From contig CAZSFV010000002.1 in the NCBI GenBank assembly GCA_964606345.1, positions 4,175-68,174 on the forward strand: a stretch of 64,000 nt of DNA, written 5' to 3'. The notes below the pieces were generated by a model. It saw nothing but the letters and a program-made list of their open reading frames with translations. It was not told the origin of the DNA and searched no databases. Both the position numbers and the translations under genes were made by a program. This document shows, in pieces, positions 20,682 to 29,183 of this stretch (position 1 is the first letter of the stretch; each line of letters opens with the position of its first letter). The stretch comes from an uncultured Bacteroidaceae bacterium. Lineage in GTDB: Bacteria; Bacteroidota; Bacteroidia; Bacteroidales; P3.

Positions 20682-20950
20682 AATAACACGACATAAGGAT
20701 ATTCATAAACGATAATCAAAAGGAAGCAGCATATCACCCGATACACTGCTTTCTTTCGTTCTGCGCAAAACAACCGCCATTTGCGAAACACTTTATTTTG
20801 CAGCACCTGACTCAATCTTTACACGACTACATCTTAACGCCTCTTCGCTCACTTGTGTGTTTTTGCGGCATGTATATTTATTTTTATTTCCAACAACGCT
20901 AAAAGCCCTCAGCCTCAATACTTTTCAGTGCCAACGAAAGAAAACCGAAG

Positions 20951-21154
20951 CTAATTAAGTGCAAACAAAGTATCCATTAATCGTTTATCATCAAAACTAT
21001 CTACACTAAACAACAACTGTTGCTTATCGAACGCTCCGACCTCACGAGACGCTACAAGCCGCATCTTACAGAACATGACACAAAATACCGACAGTTGACG
21101 TTGCAATATTCCTTGCTCGTCTCTGATAGCTCTTATCTTGTTTCCTAATAACAT
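20951..21154 (-). CDS. Small XRE-like HTH protein, divergent or possibly degenerate
   Basis: The N-terminus LGNKIRAIRDEQGILQRQLS resembles HTH_3 helix 1-2. The remainder matches only loosely. Confidence 0.35.
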   Translation of the reverse strand: MLLGNKIRAIRDEQGILQRQLSVFCVMFCKMRLVASREVGAFDKQQLLFSVDSFDDKRLMDTLFALN

Positions 21155-21187
21155 ATCTTTTGAATTTTAAGTTCGACCAAAATGCTC

Positions 21188-21352
21188 GGTTTGTCGGTCG
21201 AATTTCGCTATAATCGGTTGCTTTTGCTATAAATTTCGTCGAAAACTTCGCTATAATTATGACGGAATCAGTCGTTTCTGCCTATTTCCAACGATAACAT
21301 TGGTCGGATTTCGGTCGGATTTATGGATTTCGGTCAGTTTTCGGTCGGATTT
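21188..21352. repeat. Two families of phased direct repeats in the intergenic region upstream of the XRE-like ORF
   Basis: TTCGCTATAAT-like at 21204, 21224 and 21247 (20-23 bp phasing). TCGGTCGGATTT-like units at 21300, 21311, 21330 and 21341 (about 10-11 bp period), with a related copy gtcggtcgaattt near 21193. Confidence 0.8.
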
Positions 21353-21370
21353 GTTTCCATCTGACCGTTC

Positions 21371-22960
21371 CTATTTCAAAATCCATCTTAGTCCGATTCT
21401 ATCTATTGAATTTTCTTCATTCATTTCCACTAACAATCTACCTACATAACGAAGTTTTTGCTCTTCCGTCTTATTCTGAGGAAGATATTCGTAGATGCTG
21501 TCTCTCTTGGCACCTTCCTTACCTGCGTTACTGAGATATTGAAGAACCATTTGGCGTAGTTTCTCCTTATCTAATCCTCTTGTCTTAGTGTAGGAAGGCA
21601 GCTGATGCGTGTTTTTGGCGACACTTAGGGATATGCTGTAATGCGGAGGCTCACCCTCTATCAGTCCACGTCTGAGCAAGTCTTGTGCCACATCCTCATG
21701 AATGGTTCTTCCTTTCTGCACAGCATCGAGCGAGATGCAATCCCATAGAGAAAGGGTGTCGTTTGTCTTCAGCAAGTCAGTATATCGCTTGTTGATTTCG
21801 TTGCCGTAAATGCGTACTACGACTTTCTTATTTATTTGGTCAATCTCATAGTCTGGCATGGGGAAGTGCCTGCGCCATTGCTCGTTGAACATCTTCTTGA
21901 TACCACGGCTTACGGTATCAATCATGTTGAAGTCAACCATAGCCCGGCACAAACATTCATTGCGGAAATGCGTTTGAGGCTCTTCGTTTCTCAAAGCATT
22001 CTCCAATGTGCCAGGGATAAATGTACCTGCGTTGGAGTAATACAAGTAGCCTGGGTTCTCCACAAAGTTGATACGTTGCTGAAGCGTATAGTCCTGATGG
22101 GCAATGCAGTTGTGCAGTGCCTCACGAATGGTATAGTCATCATACTGCTTCATCGTATCAGGGAACAACGTACCACCAGGCATCTCACGCAACGTAAGGT
22201 TTTCTATCTTTGAGAGGATTTCATCCACTGTCAATATGAACGGAACTGTGAAATGTTCATAGTCCACAACATCCTGTTTTGCGTCTCGTCGTGTCCAAGT
22301 GACTTGTGCAACGGCCGGACGCAGTTTGAATGCCGATTCGTATTTGCCCAGCAGTATGATGGCAGCACGAGTGATGCCACCATCCCTCGTCAATCCACAT
22401 TTGCCGAGGAATGTCGGAATACTCCAGCCATTCACTTCTTCAGCAGGGATACGGCTATGCACCTTCTTGAACATCATGCGAGCCTTGGCGATAGCCACTT
22501 CATCCAAATCATCTATAGTCGCATTTGGCACAATCTCTGCCGACCAGTCTTTGGCAGTATAGATAGGTTCTTCAAGTATGACAGCCATTCTTTCCTGTGT
22601 CAGTTCCACCAAAGAATCCTCTATTCGTTGCCATGCCTTCTTGTGCGCCAAAACCGGGCGACGAGGCAAATGCTTCGGAATATGGATAATCCATACTCGC
22701 TTGTTCGTGTCATCTGTAACAAACTCCTCAATGCTTAGTCCTTCAGATGACAGATAAGTGCATTGTTCCGTCAGTTTAAAAGTTGCCGATTGCGTATTGG
22801 CCGGTTGTCCATTAAAGGTCATCCTTGAAATGTCCGTCCCTACTATTTCAAGCGTCTTATCCTTGACACCAATCACCAAGTGTCCACCCTCCATATTGGC
22901 AATGGCGGACATATACGAGATGACATCGTCTTTCTCGTTACCACAGAAAGAGTTCTTCAA
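21371..22960 (-). CDS. COG2865-type protein: AlbA_2 (Schlafen-like) N-domain, central ATPase-like (HATPase_c_4-type) region and C-terminal wHTH; N-terminus possibly truncated
   Basis: AlbA_2-like ...EWKEFKNLKNSFCGNEKDDVISYMSAIANMEGGHLVIGVKD. Central REALHNCIAHQDY motif. A TAG lies immediately upstream of the ENARCEWKEF segment, and only a TTG start is available. Confidence 0.6.
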   Translation of the reverse strand: MKNSFCGNEKDDVISYMSAIANMEGGHLVIGVKDKTLEIVGTDISRMTFNGQPANTQSATFKLTEQCTYLSSEGLSIEEFVTDDTNKRVWIIHIPKHLPRRPVLAHKKAWQRIEDSLVELTQERMAVILEEPIYTAKDWSAEIVPNATIDDLDEVAIAKARMMFKKVHSRIPAEEVNGWSIPTFLGKCGLTRDGGITRAAIILLGKYESAFKLRPAVAQVTWTRRDAKQDVVDYEHFTVPFILTVDEILSKIENLTLREMPGGTLFPDTMKQYDDYTIREALHNCIAHQDYTLQQRINFVENPGYLYYSNAGTFIPGTLENALRNEEPQTHFRNECLCRAMVDFNMIDTVSRGIKKMFNEQWRRHFPMPDYEIDQINKKVVVRIYGNEINKRYTDLLKTNDTLSLWDCISLDAVQKGRTIHEDVAQDLLRRGLIEGEPPHYSISLSVAKNTHQLPSYTKTRGLDKEKLRQMVLQYLSNAGKEGAKRDSIYEYLPQNKTEEQKLRYVGRLLVEMNEENSIDRIGLRWILK

Positions 22961-23068
22961 ATTCTTGAACTCTTTCCACTCACATCGTGCATTTTCCTAA
23001 TGAAGATATTGTTGTTGTAATTGCTGCTATTTCATATTACCATTACAAATATGACTTCTATAAAATGA

Positions 23069-24202
23069 TTATATTTCTTCAGCAAATAACATTTGCTGTT
23101 CATTACCCTTTAAATTGTAATAAATTCTATTCTTTATTTTCTTTTTTCCCACTTGAGACATTTTCTCAAGATAGCGTCTCATTTTGTCATCTCTCCAATC
23201 TATGTGTAATCTGCTGATTATGTCTTTTGCGGAAATCATTTCGGCATTTTTTAGTATTGCAATTATATTTGAATCCAGAGCATCTTTTTCTAACTGTTCA
23301 GGAGTTTTTTGTTCATTCGGGCTAAGGGTTAAGACCTTGCCAAATATATCCACGGCAGATGCTCCTTTTTGGATAATGAGTCGATTCGCATTTTTCTCTT
23401 TGCCGTCAGGAAATCTGACATAGATGGGACGGTTCTTTCTTAGACCATCAAGCACACCAGCCCAGGTACCTCCTTTATCATCACTTTGAGCTACAAAAAT
23501 CTCTGATGCCATACCATATACAATAGGATTACGCGCCATTGCAAATTCTACCGACCATGGTGCCTTAGGAGCAAAAGTACTCATTACCAGTATGCGTCCT
23601 TGAATAATATATTTTAGATATTGTTTGAAGCCGGAATTAAAAGTCATGATTCCTTGTGGAAGTACAATAATGCTTTTTCCATTTGCATTAACTGCTGAAT
23701 CTAAAGCTTGACGATCAACTCCTTTTGCAAAACCGCTAACAACGACCTTGTTCTCTGCCACGGCTTTTCTTGCTATATTTTCGGTAAAAGCTAAAGACTT
23801 CTCACAGGCATTTCGTGATCCTACAATAGCAATGGACTCTTCATTCAACAACGATTTGTTTCCCTTTGTATAGATGACAGTGGGAGCATTAAACTTCATA
23901 TTTCTTTTCAGCAGGTTAGGATACTCCTCGTGAGTTACAGGCAAAATATCATACCCTTGTGACATCAGGTCTTCCACAAGAAAGGAATTGTTTGCCAATT
24001 GAAGTCTCGCTTCTTCAAACTGAATTTTCTCAGTTTCATTCAGCCCAACAATGTCCCAATTTGAAGTATCTTCAAACAAATCTATTATAGATATTTGTGG
24101 AATGTGCTGAAAACAGTTTACATATATTTCATTTTTACGCTTTGTCCACATTTTAGGAATCAATGCAAGCGTTATCCAATATGTCAATTCTTGTTTGTTC
24201 AT
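23069..24202 (-). CDS. DprA/Smf-like protein (divergent Rossmann core plus C-terminal wHTH)
   Basis: IAIVGSRNACEKSL...NKVVVSGFAKGVDRQALDSAV..NGKSIIVLPQGI...FAMARNPIVYGMAS.IFVAQSDDKGGTWAG. Shares an ATGA overlap with the upstream helicase gene. Confidence 0.8.
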   Translation of the reverse strand: MNKQELTYWITLALIPKMWTKRKNEIYVNCFQHIPQISIIDLFEDTSNWDIVGLNETEKIQFEEARLQLANNSFLVEDLMSQGYDILPVTHEEYPNLLKRNMKFNAPTVIYTKGNKSLLNEESIAIVGSRNACEKSLAFTENIARKAVAENKVVVSGFAKGVDRQALDSAVNANGKSIIVLPQGIMTFNSGFKQYLKYIIQGRILVMSTFAPKAPWSVEFAMARNPIVYGMASEIFVAQSDDKGGTWAGVLDGLRKNRPIYVRFPDGKEKNANRLIIQKGASAVDIFGKVLTLSPNEQKTPEQLEKDALDSNIIAILKNAEMISAKDIISRLHIDWRDDKMRRYLEKMSQVGKKKIKNRIYYNLKGNEQQMLFAEEI

Positions 24203-26412
24203 AATGTACCTCCTACAGTTTTTGCTATAACAATAGGAACAATATATTTTGCTCCTTTTCGTGTTAATATACTTCCTACTTCTTTTAATGTTGCTCCACT
24301 ATCATATATATCATCTATCAAGAGTATTGTTTTTCCTTTAACTACATCATCCTCTATGTCAAATGCGTCCAATACATTTTCATGTTTGTTGTATGAATTT
24401 TGAAACATTTTCTGTTCTTGTGTTACACGCACTTTTTTCAGAGCATGACTTATAGGAACGCTTATTACACTTGCAAACTTCATGGCAAAGTTCTTTACAA
24501 GATCTCCGGATTTTGTTGGAGGCAAGTATAGTACTAAATCGAATTTAACATCTCCGAATTTCTTTCCAAACATAGACAAGGTCTTTTTTAACAGGAACTC
24601 TGGAAAATCCCCTCCATCCTCATATTTACTTCGATGTATAGCTGCACCTACATTAGAAGTTCCATAATAAGAGGCTGCATAGCCGTTCACCATACGTGAT
24701 GCTTTTCCTATATGCTCTTTTATTATTTCTATTTCTTCACTGGTATAATCAGATGTCCTAATAATATTTTTGTATTCATTCACATCTCGTTTTATTCGTC
24801 CTGTTTTCTCTATCAATATCCTGTCAATAGAAGTAAAACAGACCCTAAAACCACATTTTTTCGTAGTCCATGAAGCAAGTTCCAAAATTGGGAAAAATGT
24901 ATTTCTAAAATCCTCAAGTTTCTTGATTAACTCTGGTGGCGTAACTACGTGAATTTTCTCTAAATTTGTATTGTCGCAATTTCTATAATCCGTTTGCTCA
25001 TCACTATCCAGAAAGTCGCATAGGTATTGCATTCTTGGCATATCAGTATATACATACTGTTCCATAGAATGAAGTTCCTTCAGTTTTGCTTCTCTCTGCT
25101 CCTCAAAGTATTTTGTATTTAGAACAGGGGCATTATGTTGGTATTCATATTTCTTTGTTTTGCCATAAATAACCTCCTTGATGATTCCTTGATCTATCAA
25201 ATCCGCCTTAATCACTCTTACTTGCGTTTGCTTAAGATTAGCCTTCCTTAGGATTTCTCTCTCAGAAAGAAGTTCCTCTTTTAGTAATTCTATAACCTTT
25301 TGATATTTCTTTATTGAAGGGCGAGCTCCATCTATGAACGAGAGAGGAAGTACAGAGTCTGCAGGCACTTCACTTCCATTATCTTTACTTTCGTTGTAAA
25401 ACAATACTATACTTGTAGGTTTTCCGTCACGTCCTGCACGCCCTATCTCTTGATAATAGTGAATCGGAGATACCGGAATTTGAGTATGTATGATAAAACG
25501 AATGTCAGGCTTGTCTATTCCCATACCTAAAGCATTAGTTGACACTACGCACCTATATTTGTTTTGCATTAGACCACTTTCTATTGACTTTCTTGTCTCT
25601 GCGTCAAGGCCTGCATTATAATCTATTGCTTTAACTCCAATAGACTGAAGCCATTTCGCATAAGTTTCAGTGTCTATACGCGTGCCTGTATATATTAAAC
25701 CTGTACCATCTAATTTCTCAATGTTTTGAGCCAGCCATATCATTTTTTCATCTTCAGACAGAACCCTTATTACTTGCAGAGCAAAGTTAGATCGCACAAG
25801 GCTTCCTCTGATAGTAGTCAACTGACCTCCTATCTGCTGTTCAATATCATGTTGCACCCTTTCTGTTGCGGTAGCAGTAGTAGCCAAGACAGGCAAGTTC
25901 TTCGGAAGAACCTGTACCAAATTAATAATCCTGCGGAACGATGGTCTAAAATCATGTCCCCAAACAGAAATTGTGTGTGCTTCATCAATCACAATCATTG
26001 AAAGCTTGATGTGGCGAGTCGCTTCTATCCATTCATCATTCTCCTGCCTCTCAGGTGCTATGTATAATATCTTTATTTCATTGTTTTTAGCACGTCGGAT
26101 AGCTTCTTGATTTTCCTCATGTGACTGCTCTGAATTTATATAAGCTGCAAGAATGCCTTTTTTCTCCAGTCCTCTGACTTGATCACGCATTAGAGCTATC
26201 AGAGGAGAAAAAATAACCGTAACCCCATCGAATACTGTAGCCGGGAACTGATAACACAAAGATTTACCAAATCCAGTACGTTCTATCATTAGGATTCGTT
26301 CTCCTCGAAGTATTTGTTCTACTGCCTTCCATTGTTCATCGTAGAAATGTTCTAAGCCAAATGTTCTTTTTAGCTTTTCTTCGGCAACCTTTCTTGCCAT
26401 AATAATCTGCAT
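24199..26412 (-). CDS. RecQ-family SF2 helicase fused to a C-terminal ComF/ComFC-like phosphoribosyltransferase domain
   Basis: Helicase motifs ERTGFGKSLCYQ, VIDEAHTISVWGHDFRP, ATTATAT, YYQEIGRAGRDG. C-terminal ~160 aa (about 24202-24690) carry the PRPP-binding loop KTILLIDDIYDSGATLKE. Confidence 0.85.
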   Translation of the reverse strand: MQIIMARKVAEEKLKRTFGLEHFYDEQWKAVEQILRGERILMIERTGFGKSLCYQFPATVFDGVTVIFSPLIALMRDQVRGLEKKGILAAYINSEQSHEENQEAIRRAKNNEIKILYIAPERQENDEWIEATRHIKLSMIVIDEAHTISVWGHDFRPSFRRIINLVQVLPKNLPVLATTATATERVQHDIEQQIGGQLTTIRGSLVRSNFALQVIRVLSEDEKMIWLAQNIEKLDGTGLIYTGTRIDTETYAKWLQSIGVKAIDYNAGLDAETRKSIESGLMQNKYRCVVSTNALGMGIDKPDIRFIIHTQIPVSPIHYYQEIGRAGRDGKPTSIVLFYNESKDNGSEVPADSVLPLSFIDGARPSIKKYQKVIELLKEELLSEREILRKANLKQTQVRVIKADLIDQGIIKEVIYGKTKKYEYQHNAPVLNTKYFEEQREAKLKELHSMEQYVYTDMPRMQYLCDFLDSDEQTDYRNCDNTNLEKIHVVTPPELIKKLEDFRNTFFPILELASWTTKKCGFRVCFTSIDRILIEKTGRIKRDVNEYKNIIRTSDYTSEEIEIIKEHIGKASRMVNGYAASYYGTSNVGAAIHRSKYEDGGDFPEFLLKKTLSMFGKKFGDVKFDLVLYLPPTKSGDLVKNFAMKFASVISVPISHALKKVRVTQEQKMFQNSYNKHENVLDAFDIEDDVVKGKTILLIDDIYDSGATLKEVGSILTRKGAKYIVPIVIAKTVGGTL

Positions 26413-26651
26413 AGGTATTTTGTTTTAGTTTTTATACCACAGAAACCATTTTCACCCCTAATCTCATCAGAAATGACAGGCGTTCAAGTGGTTAGTCTTG
26501 CACTTGAACACAAAGCTCCTGTGTCTGAAAGTTGCCCATTATACAATGCATCATCAGCCATTATTAGCTATGTGGTGTTATCTTCCAAGCTCATCATTCA
26601 GTGATTAGATATTAGATGACTTTCTTTTACAAGAAGCGTCTGTTATAACAG

Positions 26652-26659
26652 CAAAGGTA
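26652..26659 (-). promoter_or_regulatory. Candidate -7 box (TACCTTTG on the minus strand) about 240 nt upstream of the RecQ-PRTase ATG
   Basis: caaaggta on the plus strand. It is the only consensus-like box I see in the 434-bp upstream gap. Confidence 0.3.
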
Positions 26660-26846
26660 CAGAAACTTTTCAAGACAAAAGAAGAAAACAATGCGAAACT
26701 TTCCTTGGAGCTATATTCTATCACCCACGAGGCTGTTGATAGTCATTTCTCTAATCATGCACACAGCTTATCGTTCGTGATAATCCTTGCATTTTCTTCT
26801 TTATCGGTGTTACCCCGACTTTCTACGTATAATCGTAGTTTATGAC

Positions 26847-29183
26847 TTAGTCGACTATCAATCGCAGTGTTGTGTTTCTTATGCTGATGGTGTACACGCC
26901 GATTGGCAGTATGCCGAGGTTTATTCTTAAAGTCTCTTGACCTGCTTTAAGTGCATACTCTTTGAGTCTTCGTCCTTGAATGTCCGACAAATACACCTTT
27001 ACCTCATCTTTCAAGCCTCCGACCTTCAAAATTGCGTAATCTTTTGCGGGATTCGGATACACGCTAAAATCAATGTCTTCGGTTAATGCATCATTCAAGG
27101 ATGAGTTTACTGTCAAGTTGAGCGTTACAACGCTGTCACAGCCGTTCGCAGCCTGCAAGGTTTGTGTATATGTTCCTACCTCGCTCACATTGAAACCGTT
27201 ATCCGTGTACACTTCTTCCTCGTTTATGCTTGCATTGATTATTGTGTCGAATATCTGATTGACGGTCAGGCAAAGCGTTATAACACTGTCGCAGCTTCCA
27301 ATGGTTTGCCTCCTTTGCGTGTACGTTCCTGCCTCGCTCTCCTCGAAACCGTTGTCCGTATAAGCCTCTCCTTCGCAGATTTCGGCAATAATGCTTTCGC
27401 TGTAACCCATGCTTTCAAACACGGCAACAAATGCGGTATCACTCATGACAGATACCACACGCGGATTTTCCGTATTACCATCGTTCCAACCGATAAACCT
27501 GCCACAAACGCCCTGTACTGCCGTCAGCTCAGTACCGAATTGCCCGCAAGAATAAGCCACCTCACCAAAAGCGGTATCGTTCACCGACAAATCAAGACTA
27601 TAAAGCATCGTATCCATGATATTTAGGAAGTGTCCCCATTTATTATCGCTTGCATAATCTCCCTGCGTTCCGCAAGGAACATATACCGGTATATTTCTAA
27701 TCTCTGCCGGGAATGTGTTTTCGTTGCTCAATACGGGCGGATAATAAGCCTTTACAATTATAGATGACAAACCCGTGCAACCGCCAAAAGCCGAGAGTCC
27801 CTCTGTCCCATTGCCTATAAAATTCACTGTACTCGGAATGGTTAGCGTTGTCAATCCGCTGCAACCGTAAAATGCTCCGTTCTCCACCGAAACAATTCCC
27901 TCCGAAAGTTCAACCGAGGTCAAACTGCTGCAGTTGTAGAACGTGCTGTCGTTGACAAATGTAACGCCGCCGGGTATATTTACCGAGGTCAAACTACTGC
28001 ACCCGTTGAAAGCACTACCTCCTATTGAGGTAACACTCTCCGGTATGCTTAGCGAGGTCAAGCTGTCGTTATCTCTTAGGAAATTGGCAGGTATATGCCG
28101 CACACTTTCGCCAATATTTACCGTTGTCAAGGCTGTGTTTGAAAAAGGAGAATGGTTCCATGAACTGAAATCAGAACAATTCACGGCATTAAAGTTAAGA
28201 GTCGTCAAGTTTTCACAACCGCTGAACGCTCCCGTTCCGATAAAAGTAACACCCTCCGGTATCGTTATTTCTGTCAAACTGCTGCAACCGCTGAACGCAT
28301 TGTCTACAATCATTTCAACACTGTCAGGTATGCTTATCGATGCCAACCTGCTACAATAAAAGAAAGCATTGGCACCTATGGCATTGAGACCGGTCGGCAA
28401 AACAACCGAAGTCAATTTGCTGCAACCGGAAAATAAGCGTGGTGCAATAATGGTAACTCCGGCAGGTATTGTTACCGAAGCCAACCTGCTGCAATCCTCA
28501 AACACGGCTCCTTCAATAGAAGTAACTCCGCTGCCTATCGTTACCGATGTTAAGCTGCTGCAACCCATAAACGCTCCGTACTTGATGACAACAACGCTGT
28601 CAGGAATATTTACCGTTATCAATCTGCTGCAATTTTCGAACGATTCTGCCCCTATGTAAGTAACACCTGTGCCTATCGTTACCGAAATCAAACCGGTACA
28701 ACCGCCAAACATTCTGTTCTCAATCGTATCAATCGCATTCGGAATAATGACCGAGGTCAAGGCTGCACAATTTTCAAACGCACGCTCTCCTATTGAGGTT
28801 ACACTCTCCGGTATAACCACCGATTTTATGCCGCTCTCTTGAAACGCACACGTGCCGATGGAAACAACACTGTTGGGCATAACAACCGAAGACAAACCGC
28901 TGCAAGCATAAAAAGCGAACTCCTCAACAGAGGTAACCATATATGTGCTGTCTCCCCTTTGCAGACTGCTCGGAATAACCACTTCACCACTTACATAATC
29001 AAGCTCACTGATACCCTCATGCGTTACTGCCACCGTGCTGTCCGATGTAATATTGTAGTACAGCCTTTTCCCTTGATATAAATAGGAGAAATCATATGCC
29101 GTTGCTTGGAACGAAATGAGGCACATTGCCATTGCTGTCATTATCGTTCGGAATAATGATTTATCCAGCCTGTATTGTTTCAT
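26847..29183 (-). CDS. BspA-like leucine-rich-repeat surface protein with T9SS type-A C-terminal sorting domain
   Basis: More than 15 repeats of F..CS.LTSV.IP..VT.IG..AF..C. Two ~51-aa GCDS-type repeats. C-terminus FSVYPNPAKDYAILKV...GVYTISI. Confidence 0.9.
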   Translation of the reverse strand: MKQYRLDKSLFRTIMTAMAMCLISFQATAYDFSYLYQGKRLYYNITSDSTVAVTHEGISELDYVSGEVVIPSSLQRGDSTYMVTSVEEFAFYACSGLSSVVMPNSVVSIGTCAFQESGIKSVVIPESVTSIGERAFENCAALTSVIIPNAIDTIENRMFGGCTGLISVTIGTGVTYIGAESFENCSRLITVNIPDSVVVIKYGAFMGCSSLTSVTIGSGVTSIEGAVFEDCSRLASVTIPAGVTIIAPRLFSGCSKLTSVVLPTGLNAIGANAFFYCSRLASISIPDSVEMIVDNAFSGCSSLTEITIPEGVTFIGTGAFSGCENLTTLNFNAVNCSDFSSWNHSPFSNTALTTVNIGESVRHIPANFLRDNDSLTSLSIPESVTSIGGSAFNGCSSLTSVNIPGGVTFVNDSTFYNCSSLTSVELSEGIVSVENGAFYGCSGLTTLTIPSTVNFIGNGTEGLSAFGGCTGLSSIIVKAYYPPVLSNENTFPAEIRNIPVYVPCGTQGDYASDNKWGHFLNIMDTMLYSLDLSVNDTAFGEVAYSCGQFGTELTAVQGVCGRFIGWNDGNTENPRVVSVMSDTAFVAVFESMGYSESIIAEICEGEAYTDNGFEESEAGTYTQRRQTIGSCDSVITLCLTVNQIFDTIINASINEEEVYTDNGFNVSEVGTYTQTLQAANGCDSVVTLNLTVNSSLNDALTEDIDFSVYPNPAKDYAILKVGGLKDEVKVYLSDIQGRRLKEYALKAGQETLRINLGILPIGVYTISIRNTTLRLIVD

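Follow-up and report, generated by a model that had tools for sequence, protein, structure and literature searches.

We analysed a 64,000-nucleotide stretch of DNA (the window) from contig CAZSFV010000002.1 of an uncultured Bacteroidaceae bacterium. On its minus strand it carries two overlapping genes, one encoding a RecQ-like helicase that carries a phosphoribosyltransferase (PRTase) tail and the other a DprA-like protein. As judged from profile, motif and fold comparisons, the locus is very probably a PsyrTA (=RqlHI) two-gene toxin-antitoxin-type defence module that was horizontally acquired by this gut Bacteroidales bacterium (probably one of the Prevotellaceae), and its genes are hereafter called psyrT (rqlH) and psyrA (rqlI). 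A previous reading of the nucleotide sequence (the original prediction) had placed two minus-strand open reading frames (ORFs) with an ATGA overlap here; the coordinates proved exact and every motif quoted from the two proteins was found in place.

Gene and domain organization of the psyrTA locus

The two genes and their parts occupy the following window positions.

24199..26412, minus strand: psyrT (rqlH), encoding the predicted 737-amino-acid (aa) toxin (ORF; PADLOC and NCBIfam matches)
25387..26412, minus strand: helicase core, residues 1-342, with motifs I, II/DEAH, III and VI and the aromatic loop (Pfam, RecQ structures)
25093..25386, minus strand: RqlH-specific linker, residues 343-440, predicted to be winged-helix-like (AlphaFold2 secondary structure)
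24883..25092, minus strand: RecQ zinc-module homolog, residues 441-510, with one of the four canonical cysteine ligands (P..Y..C..T; ortholog alignment)
24202..24681, minus strand: PRTase (ComF/PurF-like) effector domain, about residues 578-737 (Pfam and Foldseek)
24280..24333, minus strand: phosphoribosyl pyrophosphate (PRPP)-binding loop KTILLIDDIYDSGATLKE, residues 694-711 (conserved DD[IVL][YF]DSG)
24199..24202, minus strand: ATGA start/stop overlap of psyrT and psyrA (junction sequence)
23069..24202, minus strand: psyrA (rqlI), encoding the predicted 377-aa DprA-like antitoxin (ORF; PADLOC PsyrA; Pfam)
23351..23959, minus strand: DprA-homology (Rossmann) domain of PsyrA, residues 82-284 (Pfam and structure alignments)

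At the junction, ...ACATTATGAACAAA, the ATG at 24202-24200 overlaps the TGA at 24201-24199. The same 4-nt overlap recurs in related loci, which otherwise show a gap of at most 15 nt, and psyrT and psyrA are probably translationally coupled. The PADLOC profile for PsyrT (PDLC03928) aligned without a break with residues 7-734 of the 737-aa protein, over positions 5-686 of its 689 (E=2.8e-254, 843.6 bits), and the family profile therefore already holds both the helicase and the PRTase. Pfam searches identified DEAD (residues 26-187, 8.7e-25), Helicase_C (residues 225-330, 1.9e-20) and Pribosyltran (residues 642-724, 33.2 bits; gathering cut-off 26.3), and no match to RQC, HRDC or RecQ_Zn_bind at E<=0.1. 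With the NCBIfam model TIGR00614 (recQ_fam) the protein scored 329.5 bits, above the cut-off of 219.8. The recQ equivalog TIGR01389 gave 359.6 bits, below its cut-off of 640.2, in a match ending at residue 342; residues 7-341 match the E. coli RecQ structures 1oyw/4tmu at ~1e-72. Motifs were mapped to residues 46-55 (TGFGKSLCYQ), 141-157 (VIDEAHTISVWGHDFRP), 178-183 (TTATAT), 321-330 (QEIGRAGRDG), 460-481 (RMQYLCDFLDSDEQTDYRNCDN) and 694-711 (the PRPP loop). GFGKS, DEAH and QEIGRAGRDG are invariant in all 28 PsyrT orthologs compared and TATAT varies in four of them, while DD[IVL][YF]DSG of the PRPP loop (DDIYDSG here) is kept in 28/28. In E. coli RqlH, toxicity depends on the DIVD motif that corresponds to it (PMC4670107). 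Judged by these motifs, PsyrT is a RecQ-like superfamily 2 (SF2) motor with all ATPase motifs intact and with an intact PRTase PRPP loop.

The AlphaFold model of PsyrT residues 343-737 has a mean predicted local distance difference test score (pLDDT) of 88.9. Foldseek matched its PRTase domain to PurF (5e-6), ShosT (8zvb, 3.6e-5) and H. pylori ComF (7p0h, 5.7e-4), with ShosT 8zvc/8zvd, PurR and XPRT as further neighbours; together with the Pribosyltran score these matches bear out the C-terminal ComF-like PRTase that had been proposed. The linker corresponds to the 90-aa RqlH-specific spacer of M. smegmatis RqlH (PMC3378886). Its predicted secondary structure (H25-37, H42-49, H53-65, E69-74 and E77-82, numbered as residue minus 342) consists of three helices and, after them, a beta-hairpin (about residues 368-425, pLDDT 83-96), which suggests a winged-helix-like unit. 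The winged helix-turn-helix (wHTH)-like segment of the original prediction is in this respect matched by the model; no fold match was obtained for residues ~368-425. By its secondary structure, a helical module in the model appears to correspond to the RecQ zinc domain. There is no solved PsyrT/RqlH structure.

In this module the alignment reads DMP...DYRNCDNT here, against DSC...SCEICDSC in the proteobacterial orthologs L025/L027 and QC...PCGKCDNC in P0233, a 690-aa family representative to which PsyrT, compared along its full length, is 33% identical. In PsyrT a cysteine occupies just one of the four canonical zinc-ligand positions, so the zinc motif is degenerate, as had been noticed. CxxCxxC was found in none of the 120 close homologs among the matches listed, versus 23 of 40 distant full-length family representatives. 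On this alignment evidence the loss of the zinc cysteines is clade-wide and graded and does not reflect the decay of one gene. Being graded across the family, this loss sets a sub-clade apart and is compatible with membership of PsyrTA.

The 377-aa protein matched the PADLOC PsyrA profile over residues 40-362 (profile positions 48-394 of 398; 1.8e-76, 255.8 bits) and the ShosA profile more weakly (2.6e-33). Pfam DNA_processg_A covers residues 82-284 (1.1e-39), and no WHD_DprA match was found in the protein by Pfam. The dprA equivalog TIGR00732 scored 112.4 against a cut-off of 191.15 and PRK10736 scored 79 against 495. Structure alignments reached S. pneumoniae DprA (3uqz, 8.9e-16) and ShosA (9vzo/8zva, ~3e-9), and the protein is composed of an N-terminal region, the Rossmann-type DprA domain and a C-terminal winged-helix-like tail. 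GSR, SGxAKGVD, ARN and GGTW motifs are conserved in PsyrA orthologs. The segment FAMARNPIVYGMAS (residues 220-233) had been taken as a sign of a diverged DprA core. ARNP does replace RNR, but this is no peculiarity of the gene, given that the family-wide signature AM[AR]RN[PSAK].IYG is present in 28/28 PsyrA orthologs examined. By these comparisons PsyrA is DprA-like and is not a canonical DprA. The profile, Pfam, NCBIfam and Foldseek assignments are mutually consistent for both proteins.

Distribution and genomic context of the gene pair

A search with the PsyrT-specific C-terminal 395 residues returned, at E<=1e-10, 290 clusters of 50% identity; many are 640-740-aa proteins with the match at the C-terminus. 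The full-length search listed 120 homologs at 75-89% identity, all with DEAD, Helicase_C and Pribosyltran. Relatives were found in Segatella, Prevotella, Bacteroides, Palleniella, Phocaeicola, Odoribacter, Muribaculaceae, Ignavibacterium, Arcobacter and a gammaproteobacterium. psyrA lies directly downstream of psyrT in all 27 genome loci with room for it and in all further metagenome loci. The psyrTA pair is an accessory cassette whose two genes travel together. The original prediction had described it as accessory and AT-rich and had named a conserved core position as an argument against a defence role. The pair holds no such position: the flanking genes of the window are shared by 0/29 genome loci encoding relatives, and a near-identical strain, L037, lacks the following segment.

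20834..28751, strand not applicable: 7.9-kb strain-variable segment with the AlbA_2 gene, psyrA, psyrT and most of a BspA-type leucine-rich repeat (LRR) gene, missing in L037

L037 joins window position 20833 directly to 28752, with flanks that are 98.5% and 97.2% identical and a truncated LRR gene, and the GpmA protein encoded on this contig is identical to that of the window. GC content is 36.8% for psyrT and 36.5% for psyrA, about 7 points lower than the 44.0% of the rest of the window. In L042 (~85% DNA identity across the shared flank), a mobilisable element with integrase, DUF5906-primase, Mob_Pre and trypsin genes (L042:12523-20879) occupies the same site (lgt-gpmA-PepSY). Between the PepSY-like gene and the ABC-2 permease there is thus a hotspot that varies from strain to strain, with a clean deletion in L037. 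Upstream of psyrT, the BspA-type LRR gene (window 26847-29183), whose product has a type IX secretion system (T9SS) tail, shows internal repeat-unit deletions between strains; L038 aligns with it piecewise at ~90%.

The cassette (about 21.5-26.7 kb of the window) shows 86-87% DNA identity to L001, labelled Bacteroides acidifaciens DSM 15896, and to L002 (Segatella copri), and PsyrT of this cassette type is 89% identical to that of the window at the protein level. This likeness indicates either recent inter-family transfer or contamination of one assembly. Among marks of mobile elements, we found no tRNA in the window, no integrase in the immediate flanks and no direct or inverted repeats of at least 10 nt flanking the cassette. 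Neighbours of the relatives include a PglX/type IIG enzyme, a DpdE/ZorD-like SNF2 protein, Abi_2 and AAA_14/DUF4143 ATPases, which fits residence in defence islands. The question whether a second dprA exists, raised along with the original prediction, was answered in a relative: the metagenomic locus L031, whose PsyrT is 88% identical, encodes a canonical DprA (L031:20375-21532, 385 aa, DNA_processg_A and WHD_DprA) 7 kb from psyrTA, which is 31% identical to PsyrA of the window over 167 residues. No second recQ or dprA was found within the 64-kb window.

Assignment to PsyrTA and alternative explanations

The architecture found here has been in print for some time. In M. smegmatis RqlH, according to Ordonez et al. 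(2012), a RecQ-like ATPase precedes a 90-aa specific linker; next comes a tetracysteine zinc domain, and the tail is a ComF-like PRTase. This RqlH is a 3'-5' helicase and single-stranded DNA (ssDNA) translocase that unwinds duplexes, lacks HRDC and is encoded in a genome without RecQ; homologs in Bacteroidetes were noted, and truncated RqlH without the zinc domain was insoluble and could not be assayed (PMC3378886). Russell and Mulvey (2015) found RqlH of E. coli F11 to be genotoxic when the DprA-like RqlI is missing, with SOS induction, filamentation and mutagenesis as the effects; toxicity needs the PRPP-binding residues of the PRTase as well as the rest of the protein. RqlI co-precipitated with RqlH only if the PRTase domain was present; in every case rqlH is the upstream gene of the two, the genes usually overlap, and PsyrT/PsyrA of P. 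syringae are orthologs (PMC4670107). In two species the helicase-PRTase protein has been shown to be toxic when its partner is absent. Millman et al. (2022) showed that transplanted PsyrTA (=RqlHI) protects against some phages, and described PsyrTA and ShosTA each as a PRTase toxin with a DprA-like antitoxin (bioRxiv 10.1101/2022.05.11.491447). PsyrTA was previously called in a Bacteroides thetaiotaomicron strain.

We compared the locus with PsyrTA by means of the PADLOC profiles, published residue and motif descriptions and the 690-aa representative P0233; a distant blastn search with the gammaproteobacterial ortholog L027 gave no match in 5,426 E. coli genomes. The locus shares with PsyrTA/RqlHI the domain order (RecQ-like ATPase, specific linker, zinc-module homolog and ComF-like PRTase, without HRDC), the DprA-like partner with a C-terminal HTH-like tail, the toxin gene upstream of and overlapping the antitoxin gene, the accessory distribution and the end-to-end PADLOC matches, which uphold the PsyrTA-type half of the original prediction. 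The partner about which that prediction was unsure is a DprA-like protein. In contrast to the described forms, the Bacteroidales clade keeps one of four zinc cysteines and has ~45 extra residues between the zinc module and the PRTase relative to the 690-aa proteins; a long 5' leader is conserved among the closest relatives, and an AlbA_2 gene is a frequent downstream neighbour. Canonical RecQ has the same kind of helicase core (E. coli structures matched at ~1e-72) and likewise an aromatic-rich loop; PsyrT differs from it by the lack of an RQC winged-helix or HRDC Pfam match, the lost zinc ligands, the PRTase tail and a score under the equivalog cut-off.

By analogy with its homologs, the module might operate as follows. 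The helicase part of PsyrT would translocate on ssDNA in the 3'-5' direction and unwind duplexes, as does M. smegmatis RqlH, and without its partner PsyrT would be genotoxic in a manner dependent on the PRPP-binding residues. The DprA-like PsyrA would bind the PRTase domain and neutralise PsyrT, as the partner does in E. coli RqlHI and P. syringae PsyrTA. Upon infection, phage ssDNA or replication intermediates could titrate the ssDNA-binding antitoxin, or host shut-off could deplete it, and PsyrT would be freed. The freed PRTase might then consume PRPP and/or phosphoribosylate a substrate to which the helicase gives access, either a base or a nucleic acid, resulting in replication damage and abortive infection. 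A defence role of the pair in this bacterium is suggested by the homologs, among which anti-phage activity is not universal. The PRTase substrate and the release trigger are questions of the whole PsyrTA family that this locus does not advance.

Several points weigh against the assignment to a PsyrTA defence module. Of the zinc-binding cysteines that helped to define the RqlH clade, as in the tetracysteine zinc domain of M. smegmatis RqlH, only one is kept here, and without the zinc cysteines the helicase function could differ. The immediate flanks are housekeeping genes and no multi-system defence island; the window carries thrS, a sigma factor, an ABC-2 transporter, the BspA-type LRR protein with a T9SS tail, a PepSY-like protein, gpmA and lgt around the pair. 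No relatives were found in IMG/VR, phage records gave four weak PRTase-only matches, and plasmid-borne relatives were limited to two distant RecQ-PRTase genes; there is no evidence of a phage or plasmid vehicle for psyrTA. PsyrTA of E. coli NILS69 did not detectably protect this native host from the phages tried, and its expression in K-12 caused a growth defect. In many Gram-positives RqlH occurs with no RqlI beside it (PMC4670107), and the helicase may therefore act in repair as well; for ShosT only PRPP binding, and no base substrate, has been demonstrated.

Three other explanations of the gene pair were weighed against the PsyrTA assignment. The original prediction had favoured a hitherto undescribed hybrid in which a ShosT-type PRTase toxin and a PsyrT-type helicase toxin are joined in one polypeptide beside a ShosA-like partner. 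Both modules are indeed present, ShosT structures are among the fold matches, and the ShosT (7e-6) and ShosA profiles match in part. Likewise, ShosTA has a PRTase toxin that needs PRPP binding for toxicity, an ssDNA-binding DprA-like antitoxin and anti-phage activity, its PRTase domain is structurally similar (8zvb-d), and ShosA (9vzo/8zva) resembles PsyrA. However, the PsyrT profile itself covers helicase and PRTase end to end, whereas the ShosT profile reaches residues 672-733 only, and in print RqlHI/PsyrTA is defined by just this fusion of helicase and PRTase beside a DprA-like partner (2012-2015, with anti-phage activity in 2022), so that the claim of a new architecture falls as well. ShosT carries an N-terminal pyrophosphatase domain (Rossmann hydrolase) without counterpart here and no helicase, in the place of which this locus has the RecQ-like helicase; ShosA does not bind ShosT directly (type IV), unlike RqlI, which co-precipitates with RqlH through the PRTase domain. 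A hybrid of the two systems is therefore exceedingly improbable. We give equally little credence to a natural-transformation (DNA uptake) module analogous to ComFA/ComFC/DprA. The original prediction was right about the parallel, as all three module kinds (SF2 helicase, ComF-type PRTase and DprA fold) occur here and H. pylori ComF is a fold match; the likeness had already been drawn by Russell and Mulvey, who compared RqlHI with the comF operon and DprA (PMC4670107), and again by Iyer et al. (2017). Nevertheless, the helicase is RecQ-like and not ComFA/DEAD-like, helicase and PRTase are fused and not separate, and the equivalog models for comF (34 against a cut-off of 234) and dprA (112 against 191) score far under their cut-offs. 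Furthermore, no other competence genes are nearby, the pair is accessory and, by homology, toxic, and the close relative L031 has its separate canonical dprA.

A housekeeping pair for repair or recombination, with a RecQ-like helicase and a DprA-like RecA mediator outside any conflict system, has a slim chance, somewhat larger than that of the two preceding explanations. It draws on M. smegmatis RqlH being a bona fide 3'-5' helicase in a genome without RecQ (PMC3378886), on ShosA, which acts indirectly via ssDNA and RecA and recruits RecA, and on RecA, RecG or DnaG genes at most 10 kb away in some relatives. Against it stand a pair that is strain-variable, low in GC and located in unrelated contexts, with ~86-87% DNA identity across assemblies labelled as different families, and the toxicity of the partner-less protein in the two species mentioned above. 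In addition, an alignment with an assumed numbering offset tentatively suggests that the RecA-binding residues of ShosA are not conserved in PsyrA.

As a discovery the PsyrTA assignment carries little weight, since PADLOC or DefenseFinder would label the locus automatically. The locus does document PsyrTA as a strain-variable, inter-genus mobile cassette in gut Prevotellaceae and Bacteroidaceae. It also shows a whole clade that has dispensed with the RecQ zinc ligands, and a recurrent association of PsyrTA with Schlafen-like AlbA_2 genes that do not co-evolve with it.

Leader region and the downstream AlbA_2 gene

Two elements precede psyrT.

26652..26679, minus strand: putative Bacteroidota-type promoter, TTTG (26679-26676), 16 nt and TAccTTTG (26659-26652), read from the sequence
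26413..26651, minus strand: ~240-nt 5' leader, ~86% conserved among the closest relatives only

Promoters of Bacteroidota follow a TTTG/TAnnTTTG consensus, and the pair of boxes upstream of psyrT is a putative promoter of this kind; the closest relatives have the pair too, and the TAnnTTTG box is kept at the equivalent position in 10 related loci. Scans for sigma-70-type promoters and terminators were uninformative (26 sites found, 17.5 expected). The leader is replaced or shortened in the 75% group of relatives and matched no Rfam family. A structured RNA in the leader was rejected as unsupported (RNAalifold covariation term +4, with only 2 compensatory pairs in 5 close sequences). A leader peptide was likewise rejected: both the window and L002 have an interrupted or shorter version of the small upstream ORF called in relatives, and neither the frame nor the length of this ORF is conserved.

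Directly after psyrA, on the same strand, lies the gene that had been noticed as a Schlafen/AlbA_2 neighbour, and Pfam confirms SLFN_AlbA_2 and HATPase_c_4 in its product. The same slot is occupied in L001, L003, L010, L011, L044/45 and L046/47, some of the genes carrying an additional wHTH.

21371..22960, minus strand: AlbA_2 (SLFN_AlbA_2) and HATPase_c_4 gene of the window, 5'-truncated (Pfam; L001 alignment)
L001:3777-5465: AlbA_2 gene in the same slot
L003:3764-5449: AlbA_2 gene in the same slot
L010:13440-14708: AlbA_2 gene in the same slot
L011:13500-14951: AlbA_2 gene in the same slot
L044:13508-15073: AlbA_2 gene in the same slot
L046:13349-14890: AlbA_2 gene in the same slot

In the window, two in-frame stops (23027-23029 and 22997-22999) follow the ancestral ATG at 23033-23035, and the translation reads MK*...H*ENARCEWKEFK where the L001 ortholog (91% identical) reads through. 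The stops place the start of the longest ORF beyond the EWKEFK strand, which the L001 ortholog retains, and the gene of the window is possibly decaying.

The slot is filled in 8 of ~30 distinct contexts, a remnant is found in L002 and the gene stands one gene further away in L008. With a hidden Markov model of the family, 13 genes were detected in 718 kb of fetched DNA, 11 of them in the slot after psyrA. The gene is missing from most psyrTA loci and was co-transferred with psyrTA in the closest relative. The slot genes form five lineages with 21-25% mutual identity, while the adjacent PsyrT proteins are each 68-89% identical to that of the window; such divergent lineages next to similar PsyrT therefore show no co-evolution. 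Bacterial AlbA_2 domains are defence-associated (PMC12680541), and in our reading the gene is an exchangeable one of the defence island, distinct from PsyrTA and no component of it. An AlbA_2 protein as an obligatory third component was considered unlikely.

A looser three-gene variant, in which the Schlafen-like ATPase works with PsyrTA as a sensor, regulator or second effector, would account for the same-strand slot and its high share of the family matches, and would suit a domain known from defence. It is nevertheless improbable, as the five lineages lie beside far more similar PsyrT proteins, most loci lack the gene, L002 has a remnant, the window copy carries two stops and AlbA_2 is not in the PADLOC system definition. 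Marginally better, though still unlikely, are the prospects of a gut Bacteroidales subtype in which a zinc-less PsyrT is combined with a fast-exchanged AlbA_2-HATPase_c_4-wHTH gene after psyrA that would cooperate with it functionally, as a sensor, regulator or RNA-targeting second effector, beyond mere sharing of the slot.

Downstream of the AlbA_2 gene, a 690-nt non-coding stretch contains a cluster of short direct repeats (window 21196-21352) made up of GGTCGGATTTCGGTCGGATTT and variants together with three copies of TTTCGCTATAA. This stretch with its repeats is confined to the version of the locus found in this strain.

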